Origin: Thermoanaerobaculia bacterium | Lineage (GTDB): Bacteria; Acidobacteriota; Thermoanaerobaculia; Gp7-AA8 | NCBI GenBank assembly: GCA_035688915.1 | Contig: DASSMK010000346.1 | Coordinates: 25,389-89,388 of the forward strand | Direction of reading: 5' to 3' | DNA: 64,000 nucleotides | In this document: positions 24,830 through 29,748 of the stretch, piece by piece | Layout: every line of letters starts with the position of its first letter | Numbering within the stretch: position 1 is the stretch's first letter | The notes under the pieces: model-generated | What the model was told of the DNA's origin: nothing | Database searches by the model: none | Seen by the model: the letters and a program-made list of their open reading frames with translations, nothing else | Translations under genes and position numbers: made by a program

Positions 24830-26500
24830 ATGGCGCTCGGCGTGCACATCGGCCACGATCGTGGCGCCGCCGTCGTAGTGGACGGTGCGCTCGCCGGCGC
24901 GCTCGCGCAGGAGCGCATCGATCGACGCAAGCACTCGCCGTCTCCCGATCTCCCGTACGGCGCGATCGATGCGCTCCTGAAGTACTTGCGGATTACGCCT
25001 GAGGAACTGCGGAGCGTCACATTCAGCTACACGAACGTACGGATCGCCGAGATCCTACCCCAACTCGAAGCTGAGTTCCGCGAGCACTACGAGCTTCCGA
25101 GGATCGCCGTGCTGGGAGTCTCGCACCATGACAGCCACGCGCTCGCGACGTTCTACACATCACCGTTCGAAGACGCGCTCGTGCTCATCGCGGACGGCTC
25201 CGGGGACATCGTGGACGATCGGCTCGAGGCCGAGAGCCTCTACCGCGCAACGCGCGCACGCGGGCTCACGGTTGTCGCGCGGCGTCTGCAGGACTTCCCG
25301 CTCACGTACCCGACCCGTCGCAACTTCTTCAACTTCGCCTACATGCACGAACTCGACCGCGCGAAGGAGGTAAGCCTCGGGCGGAAGTACGAGCAACTCA
25401 CCTACCTGCTCGGCTTCGCGCACGGCGAAGCAGGGAAGACGATGGGGCTGGCGTCGTACGGCGTGCCTATCGTTCACCGAAGGCCTTCGGTGAACGGCCT
25501 GGGATTCTCGTTGAAGATTCCCGACGTAATCGACGAGCTCGATGCGGTGCTCGCTGCCTCGGCCATCCCACACCATCGCTTCTATCGCGAGCGACGGGCC
25601 GATGTCGCTGCGACGGCCCAAGCGGTGGTGGAGGAGGTTGTGATTGACGTCCTGAACGCCGTGAACCCGACAGGCGCGACAAAGAACCTCTGCCTCGGTG
25701 GAGGGCTCTTTCTCAATTGCCTCTTGAACCACCGGATCCTGGAGCGAACGCGGTTCGAACGCATTCACGTGGTGCCCGCTGCGGGCGACGACGGTCAGGC
25801 GATCGGTGCCGCGTACCACGGCTACGTCGAGACAGTTGGGCCGCCAGCGGGAGGCGGCGTTCGCTCCCCGTACCTTGGCCTCTCCTACCGGCGCTCTGAC
25901 ATTCTGCGCGCGCTTCGGCACTTCCGCTTGCAGTACGAGGAGCTCGACGACGCGACGCTCATCGACCGTGTTGCGACCGCTATCGCGGACGGCAAGGTCG
26001 TTGGATGCTTTCGTGGGCGGTCGGAGTCGGGTCCAAGAGCGCTGTGCCATCGCAGCATCCTTGCCGACCCGCGGCCGAAACGGATGCGGGATCACCTGAA
26101 CCGCCGCGTGAAGTACCGCGAAGAGTTCCGGCCGTTCGCTCCAGTCGTCACGGCGGAGGACCAGTTGCGGTACTTCGACCTGCTGCAGGACTCACCGTAC
26201 ATGCTCCTCGCGGCGAACGTCCGCGCACGCTATCGCCGCAAGCTCGGAGCGATCACGCACGTTGACGGCACCGCACGCGTGCAAGCGGTGTCCTCCGACG
26301 ATGAGCCGTTCGTGCATGCACTGTTGCGACGGTTCGAGAACCTCACCGGGTTCCCCGTGCTCCTGAACACATCCTTCAATTTGTCGGACGAACCAATCGT
26401 CGAGTCGCCGCATGACGCCGTCTCGACGTTCTTGCGCTCGCGGATCGATCACCTGTTCATGGAGCGATTCCTCGTGACGAACAAACAGCCGCTTCGCTAA
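24830..26500 (+). CDS. carbamoyltransferase (NodU/CmcH/TobZ family)
   Basis: N-terminal MALGVHIGHDRGAAVVVDG, then ...IADGSGD...GLASYG... and C-terminal ...GRSESGPRALCHRSILADP...FRPFAPVV...VLLNTSFN. ORF-track start is 24761; ATG 24830 is preferred (alternative 24815). Confidence 0.8.
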   Translation: MALGVHIGHDRGAAVVVDGALAGALAQERIDRRKHSPSPDLPYGAIDALLKYLRITPEELRSVTFSYTNVRIAEILPQLEAEFREHYELPRIAVLGVSHHDSHALATFYTSPFEDALVLIADGSGDIVDDRLEAESLYRATRARGLTVVARRLQDFPLTYPTRRNFFNFAYMHELDRAKEVSLGRKYEQLTYLLGFAHGEAGKTMGLASYGVPIVHRRPSVNGLGFSLKIPDVIDELDAVLAASAIPHHRFYRERRADVAATAQAVVEEVVIDVLNAVNPTGATKNLCLGGGLFLNCLLNHRILERTRFERIHVVPAAGDDGQAIGAAYHGYVETVGPPAGGGVRSPYLGLSYRRSDILRALRHFRLQYEELDDATLIDRVATAIADGKVVGCFRGRSESGPRALCHRSILADPRPKRMRDHLNRRVKYREEFRPFAPVVTAEDQLRYFDLLQDSPYMLLAANVRARYRRKLGAITHVDGTARVQAVSSDDEPFVHALLRRFENLTGFPVLLNTSFNLSDEPIVESPHDAVSTFLRSRIDHLFMERFLVTNKQPLR

Positions 26501-29500: not shown

Positions 29501-29748
29501 ATCTTCGTCGGCCGATCAGCGCGTTCAGGAATCTCGATTCCGAACAACGTGATCGTCTGCTGTGCCATGACGATGATGTCGCGGCCGTGATCGCCCGAGG
29601 GTGGCGTGCGCTCCACGGTGACGACGTCGCGTCGGTCATGGAAGAAGTCTTGGAGATGCTCGGCGATCAGCTCCTCAAATGCCGTTCCGTCGATGCCGGT
29701 GAGATCCCACTCGACGCGCGGTGCGATTGGTCCGGCGTAGCGCGTCAT
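26497..29748 (-). CDS. Avs-like antiviral STAND protein: N-terminal Mrr-type PD-(D/E)xK nuclease, STAND NTPase, C-terminal helical/TPR-like sensor
   Basis: Mrr-like FEELIAEHLQDFFHDRRDVVTVERTPPSGDHGRDIIV...KIYVECKKR (D...ExK). Walker A CSVTGRAGVGKSRIV and Walker B SRVILLEDLHHA. The C-terminal region is helical and over 600 aa. The start was moved to Met153; the stop overlaps the carbamoyltransferase stop (convergent). Confidence 0.7.
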   Translation of the reverse strand: MTRYAGPIAPRVEWDLTGIDGTAFEELIAEHLQDFFHDRRDVVTVERTPPSGDHGRDIIVMAQQTITLFGIEIPERADRPTKIYVECKKRTGDRLDTEFFFDFSQFADTGAPDYYFLVTTASLSPNVHFKAVHECGAKGAKFRLIDGVLLAEYVAQHEIPIPLRSPVTLPKDILVEYQPVPYYRQDRRIDVYVVLWNYASVPRSFHVYLSTNDAWHIIDGAADVDRIVEPRNALVLQLIAQRRTLDHVEADLEIAVTIENERRTIRVSAPHVELAFVPTLVGTQHLDEKDHLRTVIDENVGLTICSVTGRAGVGKSRIVQDALEPRLGKSKIELVPVLFDATGGTDELRAALQTLKISEPTGIDSVEGLLAHLLQNAPRRTRSRVILLEDLHHARKPVLDLLKQFVMFPPTVPHPVTVILTGRNDYTFPNEDYFSLLDVIAVAARPSVVPVELQPLSEQDTYTLIRSILRDAPETVITRIYNLSEHVPYYVTQAIEYLLESGVAHLVHRSEVGIPHLENFSAKEYIPDTVDALYELRLKALGALPHGEAMLDFLTTQSFFGVVVSPVVREEALDADTGDDVLQTLIARRFLSTRQADGRMTFAHENLLAVLRARARAAGNQERAGKLVLSRPRLFALLTDLERAEVLFLARALPDALTQFHRLVRDVERITNFSSEDLDVEYFRYIDAAFECAVQCNAATDLLRKMLLAKAYMGIHNYPLKIGVRACDTALEQLKRVKLRPEARNIVSLELRQLQAHGLLNMGKTMRSSGIMLELDQLLRSTGAGAAAPELVFDLYDRLQEVFKKWNHAALARCYGALAREVVDRSGNPHLRACHAITESGMALYRDPEEARRTARWSFCECRKHGAYRLKVYTRLSMYVAEAVADPTPRTWEKILWKAKRLWQTAALKNLSDSLMRVQLLVATLTYLTRPDDLRAIASAEEYARAGIDSCANFGKGLYSWLLYNLLAVLADARRGEKEEVWERFNSARRELDAQGLLFVGRKDCTYPTVFVISNIAFFRAYFDREDALRILGQVTDYESDRTKEARETALRLVRSKSRLFFRAPRGLTCLADPKHGYWLPLL

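Follow-up and report, generated by a model that had tools for sequence, protein, structure and literature searches.

The Mu G, P1 C and e14 P segments are inverted by the serine invertases Gin, Cin and Pin, with an enhancer and Fis, and their alternatives are homologous tail-fibre variants joined to a constant N-terminus. Further inversion systems, including the R64 shufflon (Rci), fimS (FimB/FimE) and the invertible promoters of Bacteroides, depend on tyrosine recombinases, and FLEx and Brainbow-2 are synthetic eukaryotic Cre/lox switches, in which tail-to-tail genes lie between inverted lox sites and share one promoter. To our knowledge, no tyrosine-recombinase inversion system swaps two unrelated full-length genes. 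The "epigenetic invertons" of Type I restriction-modification hsdS genes are also tyrosine-recombinase inversion systems (PMC7672463, PMC4948785). Here, we describe a pair of convergent genes, encoding a carbamoyltransferase (CT) and a STAND/NLR-like protein (STAND), in a 64,000-nt stretch of DNA from a Thermoanaerobaculia bacterium (contig DASSMK010000346.1, positions 25,389 to 89,388 of the forward strand; hereafter, the window). The pair is bounded by two short inverted repeats (IRs) and is probably the whole cargo of a ~5-kb invertible cassette, which a recombinase would flip behind a fixed gene.

In logic, the nearest analogue of such a cassette would be the Mu G and P1 C segments, in enzymology the tyrosine-recombinase invertons and shufflons, and in design FLEx and Brainbow-2. 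As in Mu G, P1 C and e14 P, a segment of a few kilobases would hold two tail-to-tail units with the promoter and the 5' part outside, an IR lies inside the upstream reading frame, and inversion would pick the expressed unit, whereas the cassette would swap two unrelated complete genes and has tyrosine-recombinase-like sites and neighbours. With the shufflon, hsdS, fimS and Bacteroides systems it would have in common short IRs, a tyrosine recombinase encoded close by, heterogeneous populations and frequent phage or defence links. In those systems, what is rearranged is a promoter or a set of homologous gene segments. The cassette repeats, in addition, include the regions where translation of CT and STAND begins. 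The logic shared with FLEx and Brainbow-2 would be that inversion selects which of two promoterless genes faces a fixed promoter. A search of open-access papers, in which absence is not proof, returned no account of a CT-STAND pair or of an enzyme/NTPase gene-swap cassette; the programmed inversions found there concern promoters, hsdS genes, pilins and prophage tail-fibre segments. The cassette switch looks widespread and is apparently undescribed.

In window coordinates, the cassette and its flanks comprise the following features.
24815-26500, plus strand: carbamoyltransferase (CT), 561 aa, NodU/CmcH/TobZ-type, ATP-dependent; cassette gene 1
29748-26497, minus strand: STAND/NLR-like protein, 1083 aa; cassette gene 2
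24796-24814: left IR core, CGATAATTGGGAATTATCC, with arms GATAAT and ATTATC around an asymmetric purine-rich centre, TGGGA; Xer/dif-like layout
29767-29785: right IR core, the left core in reverse complement, within the 3'-terminal part of the CDP-OH_P_transf open reading frame (ORF), where it encodes IIGNY
30560-29745, minus strand: fixed upstream gene, CDP-alcohol phosphatidyltransferase (CDP-OH) membrane protein, 271 aa
24714-23569, minus strand: fixed downstream gene, two-HKD PLD-family protein (PLD), ClsB-like with a score of 200 bits (cut-off 281); the flank conserved beyond the opposite end of the cassette
24771-24795: flank outside the left IR, partial mirror of the CDP-OH 3' end (16 of 25 nt, the first 11 identical)

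The first-pass annotation of this DNA reported the two genes as convergent with a 4-nt overlap of their stops, and the ORF and stop coordinates bear this out: TAA at 26498-26500 (plus strand) and TAG at 26499-26497 (minus strand) share 26497-26500. The CT start given there, 24830, is the next in-frame ATG. The CT frame is free of stops over 24761-26500 (plus strand), and the likely start is the ATG at 24815 (MTRRRMALG...), 1 nt past the left repeat, as in close relatives, in which CT likewise starts 1-2 nt past the repeat. The STAND start is backed by an N-terminal alignment of 15 homologs. Pfam searches assigned Carbam_trans_N (2e-35) and Carbam_trans_C (4e-66) to CT, and Mrr_cat (2e-6), AAA_22 (2e-8) and AAA_16 to STAND; the GC content around the CT-STAND region is 62-68%. 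Among relatives, the spacing of the two 3' ends ranges from an overlap of ~75 nt to a gap of ~40 nt (with L009 and L099, ~240 nt, as exceptions), and thus the tight convergence is conserved but the exact 4-nt overlap is not.

Both CT and STAND are preceded by CGATAATTGGGAATTATCC. Within it, the 17-nt palindrome GATAATTGGGAATTATC has exactly two copies in the window, at 24797-24813 (plus strand) and 29768-29784 (minus strand), with GGG on the named strand, against 0.01 matches expected in shuffled sequences. The same palindrome had been noted upstream of both genes at the outset; the exact 17-nt copies stand, although the STAND-side copy is not intergenic and lies within the CDP-OH_P_transf ORF. 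The two copies are inverted repeats with a common core of 19 nt (44 nt at 80% match), and the distance from IR to IR is 4988 nt. The CT ATG is 1 nt inward of the left IR and the STAND ATG 19 nt inward of the right IR, where the CDP-OH stop overlaps it as ATGA. The CDP-OH flank is common to the window and the related loci L001, L088, L090 and L094. Outside the left IR, the flank at 24771-24795 reads SPLRRRVVPIIGNYP*, its TGA overlapping the CT ATG. This partial mirror may be a relic of a past exchange, to which we give low weight because the similarity is missing in L088, L090 and L094.

Assemblies of relatives hold both orientations of the cassette on one and the same flank. In the P0010 lineage, the flank ...GCCGGCTGTCTGCCG beside Int309 runs through the repeat into CT in L002 and L003, and into STAND in L004, and a 5093-nt contig of this lineage (L005) carries the Int309-side flank at both ends. 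In the P0003 lineage, whose repeat core is that of the window, a 106-nt PLD-side flank, 100% identical, joins CT in L088 (a 184-kb contig) and STAND in L089 (a JGI contig), and the 4987-nt interiors of these two contigs are 100% identical. L095 terminates in a 118-nt perfect inverted copy of its opposite flank. Both orientations on one flank are seen in these three CT/STAND lineages (P0010, P0003 and L095) and in L223, a cassette of the second type described below, which has an identical flank at both ends. In addition, the orthologous blocks differ in the gene that comes after CDP-OH: it is STAND in the window, L001, L088 and L094, and CT in L090 and L091, where the CT start overlaps the CDP-OH stop.

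The longest contig is 4.95-5.13 kb for 27 of the 120 best CT homologs, and the two cassette-sized CT contigs that were retrieved (L005 and L006) break at the repeats; L006 (5043 nt) begins and ends exactly with the repeat, and L093, of the ATP-grasp type, ends exactly in the IR. The repeats are shorter than assembler k-mers, so an assembly graph should break at their outer edge only when the reads contain two different junctions. When 24805-29776 was inverted in silico, the CDP-OH ORF stayed in frame through the repeat and ended in ...IIGNYP*, its TGA overlapping the CT ATG, which mirrors the native end ...IIGNYPRPSFAR* and its ATGA overlap with STAND; L090 shows the natural counterpart of this inverted state. 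That the CDP-OH frame suits either state would be difficult to account for if only one of them were in use. At the family level, the repeats are very probably the recombination sites of an invertible cassette, and we consider it fairly likely that the window copy is still switchable.

The motif GATAAY-N5-RATTATC is present at both ends of the pair in all 13 repeat-carrying CT/STAND loci with both ends assembled, and it also bounds three ATP-grasp/NTPase loci. The 13 CT/STAND loci span Acidobacteriota(-like), Lachnospiraceae, Bacteroidaceae and other contigs. Within each locus the two repeat copies are identical, the 5-nt centre varies between loci, and the similarity stops a few bases outside.

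The pairing itself is conserved. STAND was accompanied by a convergent CT in 8 of 8 metagenome loci found from the STAND side, and at every STAND-family locus with readable surroundings, which also include L001-L006, L087-L091, L224 and one IMG/VR contig. From the CT side, a profile search of 80 genome loci with CT homologs found STAND at four of the five loci with a CT of at least 41% identity (L007, L008, L009 and L011; CT 43-52%), the fifth (L010, CT 41%) being a contig of 2.1 kb that opens with an IR, and at none of the 75 generic CT loci of 30-38% identity. STAND is restricted to the CT clade of at least 43% identity, indicating a distinct clade dedicated to the pair. The association noticed in the window thus holds among homologs and is clade-specific from the CT side. 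No antibiotic or Nod-factor cluster, a context that the first-pass annotation had considered for CT, surrounds the pair; its neighbours are lipid-synthase-like genes and defence and mobile-element genes. The STAND family, a small and well-delimited one, comprises 198 clusters at 50% identity (117 at E <= 1e-30), nearly all of ~1080-1100 aa and aligning end to end. Across phyla, CT is ~45-60% identical and STAND ~23-35%, a contrast that fits a universal CT substrate and a fast-evolving sensor.

Some loci contain further copies of the motif. L008 has a third copy at 2432-2446, directly before a promoterless 209-aa ORF without a Pfam match, L009 has two nested IR pairs (9831/15950 and 9907/15874), and L224 has a further copy at 732-746, adjoining a second XerC/D-like integrase. 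Extra copies of this kind hint either at a layout with several sites, as in a shufflon, or at adjacent cassettes. Two carriers also deserve mention. L102 (IMGVR_UViG_3300029713_000407) carries a CT-STAND cassette with IRs at 9862-15071 on a contig classed as viral in IMG/VR, and this carrier may be a prophage or another mobile element. The surroundings of the orthologous cassette block in L090 (5191-6027 and 19166-22542) include other defence-type genes (SLATT, TerB_N and BrxC/BrxD-like ATPase) as well as a serine recombinase of large size, which indicates that the block is carried along in defence islands.

XerC/D-like tyrosine recombinase genes of ~300-330 aa (Phage_integrase plus a SAM-like N domain) adjoin the cassettes in relatives, often co-directionally and ending 25-100 nt before the repeat. 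The recombinase is directly beside the CT/STAND cassette in L002, L009, L011, L098, L099, L101 and L224, beside the ATP-grasp type in L092, and just past PLD in L090 and L094, in all ten loci within ~2 kb of the cassette. The adjoining recombinases are 30-68% identical to each other. The E. coli dif core reads ...CATAA-TGTATA-TTATG..., and we take the inner ATAA...TTAT arrangement of the repeat to resemble such Xer/dif cores; host Xer proteins may act on the repeats. The window itself encodes two short tyrosine recombinases.
4939-5595, minus strand: short tyrosine recombinase Int218, 218 aa, FimB/E-sized; candidate invertase
904-1536, minus strand: second short tyrosine recombinase, a paralog of 211 aa

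The size of both proteins and their best sub-threshold NCBIfam matches resemble FimB/FimE-type invertases. Int218 is 52% identical to Int213 of L001, which lies beside the orthologous cassette block in the order CDP-OH, cassette, PLD, 246-aa ORF, Int213. The window would keep this order if its 6.4-23.5 kb stretch, where an NB-ARC protein is encoded together with the Ssp-like phosphorothioation cluster described below and SSB-like genes, were a later insertion. By this synteny, Int218 is a candidate for the invertase.

Several observations weigh against a switch of this kind. The window contig has one orientation, and the evidence for inversion comes from assemblies and not from reads; look-ups of the window proteins gave one short Logan fragment in the same orientation, which is uninformative on inversion. 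No recombinase gene is next to the CT-STAND cassette of the window, the candidates being 19-24 kb off, and the recombinase type near the cassette differs between close relatives. No promoter was located in either window flank. In addition, two metagenome contigs of 678-723 kb (L096 and L097) have at 8001-12905 a convergent pair (CT 50%, STAND 32% identity) without detectable IRs or a nearby recombinase. Here the pair seems to have been "frozen". CT and STAND can thus be maintained as neighbours where the switch is missing, and the two proteins may still be linked directly in function.

Among the other explanations, the one that survives best, though we consider it unlikely, is that a promoterless two-gene cassette with terminal IRs is moved as a mobile element, by recombinase-mediated excision and integration or by transposition, and that the cassette-sized contigs reflect several insertion contexts. 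Such movement would account for the homology between L223 and the second cassette of the window, which stops exactly at the IRs and has unrelated flanks, for the varied contexts and phyla, for the mobile-element-like regions with relaxase, RepB, SSB and integrases, and for the one cassette on an IMG/VR contig. However, only CT and STAND, and no transposase, lie between the repeats, one flank is joined to both ends, as predicted by inversion and unlike insertion at new sites, and the CDP-OH frame is adapted to both orientations. The same recombinase could both invert and move the cassette.

The first-pass annotation took CT and STAND, with the same palindrome upstream of each, to be co-regulated, with CT perhaps generating a ligand or acting as an immunity partner. 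On this view the palindrome would be a shared operator. A site for a dimeric regulator of this kind, with CT making or modifying a ligand or acting as an immunity factor for STAND, now appears improbable. The near-perfect palindrome in matching positions ahead of the two start codons, the strictly conserved pairing and the IR-less loci that keep the pair would all suit an operator, and a site-bound recombinase could double as a repressor. The operator does not explain, however, why, in three lineages of the CT/STAND type and at one locus of type 2, identical cassettes occur in both orientations between unchanged flanks, or why cassette-sized contigs break at the repeats; the recurrent neighbours are recombinase genes and not regulators, one copy lies within coding sequence and is in frame both ways, and convergent genes without an intervening terminator are ill-suited to simultaneous transcription. 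The palindromes are better read as inverted-repeat recombination sites that bound an invertible cassette. Since the inverting design points to alternating and not simultaneous expression, it weakens, without excluding, the idea of a ligand-generating or immunity partner. Inversion as a rare RecA-dependent accident at short repeats, or as an artefact of assembly, in either case without a programmed role, is highly improbable even though all of the inversion evidence comes from assemblies, as repeats of 17-25 nt are too short for efficient homologous recombination, junctions across repeats shorter than the assembler k must be read-supported, independent samples and assemblers (ENA SPAdes/MEGAHIT, JGI, Logan) concur, and the motif is conserved across phyla but the surrounding sequence is not.

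Two known element types were considered and rejected. A transposon or insertion sequence does not fit, with no transposase between the repeats and the same flank joined to both ends. An integron gene cassette has only the promoterless cargo in common with the CT-STAND cassette; no attC-like structure or array is present, and the recombinase matches integron-integrase models weakly, below the cut-off.

The window contains a second cassette of the same design, in which the enzyme and the NTPase are different.
49599-53227: second cassette, with IRs GATAACTAGAAATTATCGrGGT at 49599-49620 and 53206-53227
49628-50704, plus strand: ATP-grasp (D-Ala-D-Ala-ligase-like) gene
53197-50708, minus strand: AAA_16/AAA_22 NTPase gene, 829 aa

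GATAACTAGAAATTATC occurs at 49599 and inverted at 53211, within a 22-nt IR at 95% match. The cassette measures 3629 nt from IR to IR, its GC content is 55-59% versus ~65% around it, and its two genes are convergent with a 3-nt gap. For 28 of 120 ATP-grasp homologs, the longest contig is 3.55-3.69 kb. L223 and the window are homologous exactly from repeat to repeat (77.6% over 49593-53227) with unrelated flanks, and the isolate Paludibaculum fermentans carries, at ~1.789-1.794 Mb of JBPJAQ010000001.1 and in this order, Int316, an IR, the convergent ATP-grasp and NTPase genes, and an IR. BLASTP between the two cassette NTPases of the window gave no significant similarity; the cassette types share the design and the site, not the NTPase sequence. 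With this second cassette and the signatures of its relatives, an enzyme gene converging on an NTPase gene between Xer-like inverted repeats is therefore a general arrangement. We see about an even chance that these loci form an undescribed, phylum-spanning class of flipped promoterless enzyme-STAND/NTPase cassettes, of at least two types, whose sites are the initiation regions of both genes and which toggle between an immune and an enzyme state. A scan of IMG/VR for GGATAACN5AATTATCC found single, chance-like sites, and no inverted pairs or further cassette types.

How the genes would be expressed is suggested by the position of the repeats. Nearly all relatives have a CT start of the form ATTATC(N1-2)(A/G)TG. 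In L006 and L093, the ATG is the final triplet of the repeat, and in L223 the repeat holds GGAG and the ATG for both genes. The repeat centres are purine-rich toward the interior (TGGGA, AGGGG, CGGGA, TGAGA and CAGGA) and, where start codons abut the repeat, lie ~7-9 nt before them, the position that a Shine-Dalgarno sequence would take. Both genes start 1-20 nt inside the repeats, so that the cassette offers hardly any space, or none, for promoters; with essentially no 5' regions, the genes must be transcribed from the flanks. A scan of the window found no terminator-like site between CT and STAND. Promoter scans of the window and of AT-rich relatives gave no matches, or matches no commoner than in shuffled sequences; L008 and L009 each have a single, weak promoter-like match (10/12) immediately beyond one IR. 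The scans favour neither flank as the driver of expression.

In the mechanism that we propose, a site-specific tyrosine recombinase would invert the cassette, and the active flank (in the window that of the CDP-OH operon, in other loci that of the recombinase gene) would express the gene facing it. In the window lineage, either STAND (the current state) or CT would be placed behind CDP-OH and translationally coupled to it, while the other gene would face the PLD-side flank, silent and antisense to read-through. From this geometry, expression would be either/or, and we lean toward its being strictly so. The population would then be split into "STAND-on" cells, with an NLR-like sensor bearing an Mrr-type nuclease effector, presumably for abortive or anti-mobile-element defence, and "CT-on" cells, which would carbamoylate a probably universal substrate. 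One possible meaning is that the population hedges its bets, with an NLR-like nuclease defence in some cells and an enzyme-driven state in others. More speculatively, a "mark and restrict" scheme could operate at the level of the population, in which enzyme-on cells would chemically mark something such as nucleic acid, envelope or a metabolite, and the sensor/nuclease of their STAND-on siblings would respond; this would explain why CT and STAND would have to avoid being on together.

We next consider the two proteins. The AlphaFold model of STAND (pLDDT 86.6) comprises an Mrr-type PD-ExK nuclease (1-160), a beta-sandwich (173-267), a P-loop NTPase (283-470), helical/WH modules and an alpha-solenoid (620-1055). 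In 15 STAND homologs, D53/G55/D57 and E86-C87-K88 (the PD-ExK signature) are invariant, as are the Walker A motif G309-x2-G-x-GK(S/T)R317 and D390/H392. Foldseek ranked 6mfv first (6e-12), then Apaf-1, Cdc6/ORC, SAMD9 and Avs4 (8dgf_B, 1e-6), followed by plant NLRs and MalT. PADLOC gave no Avs match at E <= 0.01 for STAND, only LmuA (0.0026), and a phmmer search of the PDB with its sequence gave no match. The initial description of the protein as an Avs-like STAND therefore applies to its architecture of nuclease, STAND NTPase and alpha-solenoid, but not to family membership, as it falls outside the PADLOC Avs families. Compared with Avs4 (PDB 8DGF), it has the same N-terminal PD-(D/E)xK nuclease, STAND NTPase and C-terminal alpha-solenoid, but has an extra beta-sandwich, is always paired with CT and is usually in an invertible cassette.

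CT is a full-length protein of the TobZ/GdmN/NovN type, with GdmN (1e-73) and TobZ (2e-59) as sequence matches in the PDB, and has the family layout of a Kae1-like N domain and a YrdC-like C domain. It scored 150 bits against the NodU equivalog cut-off of 1000. The catalytic-motif columns (His/Asp, Arg/Lys) are invariant in 30 homologs. TobZ, GdmN, NovN and NodU share with it Carbam_trans_N, Carbam_trans_C and the motif columns, whereas the window CT is without a biosynthetic cluster and belongs to a distinct clade (at least 43% identity) found only in these cassettes. The best models for CDP-OH are phosphatidylcholine synthases (below cut-off), and with a Pcs-like CDP-OH and a ClsB-like PLD as neighbours, a lipid head group is a conceivable substrate of CT; the cassettes of other phyla, which are without CDP-OH/PLD neighbours, weigh against it.

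If the proposed switch is correct, it would be a new one that exchanges a whole NLR-like immune gene for an unrelated enzyme gene, recurring with a conserved site in Acidobacteriota, Firmicutes, Bacteroidota and others. Costly STAND immunity would be bet-hedged at the DNA level, and the arrangement would strongly suggest, on genetic grounds, that enzyme and sensor either oppose each other in function or act in sequence. It would also explain why metagenome assemblies fragment into cassette-sized contigs at these genes, and engineering would gain a small natural counterpart of "FLEx" together with pairs of recombinase and site. Since isolates carry the cassette (Paludibaculum fermentans, for example, that of the ATP-grasp type), the system can be tested directly.

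The window is a dense defence island up to ~53.9 kb, where HlyD/ABC/MacB genes and two-component genes of the sigma-54 type take over. On the minus strand at 12528-21307, the Ssp-like cluster for DNA phosphorothioation seems, by synteny with L001, to be inserted between the cassette block and the recombinase, and three large proteins of NLR or conflict type are encoded elsewhere in the island.
20015-21307, minus strand: Ssp-like cluster, cysteine desulfurase
19122-20018, minus strand: Ssp-like cluster, DUF4007
15703-19329, minus strand: Ssp-like cluster, AAA_16/DUF6079-like ATPase, 1208 aa
14895-15827, minus strand: Ssp-like cluster, PAPS reductase-like
12528-14894, minus strand: Ssp-like cluster, double HATPase_c protein
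6380-9073: NB-ARC+TPR protein, 897 aa
36563-39862: CHAT-domain protein, 1099 aa
45020-48946: CHAT+NACHT/AAA+TPR protein, 1308 aa

Just upstream of CDP-OH, a high-GC block (69-75%) at 30685-36175 contains a RepB-primase-like ORF (30685-31527) and ORFs with no or weak Pfam matches, and two SSB-like ORFs lie at 22251-22802 and 22944-23504. The RepB-primase-like block and the SSB-like ORFs suggest the backbone of an integrated mobile element, as in L001, where a relaxase and an SSB are present.

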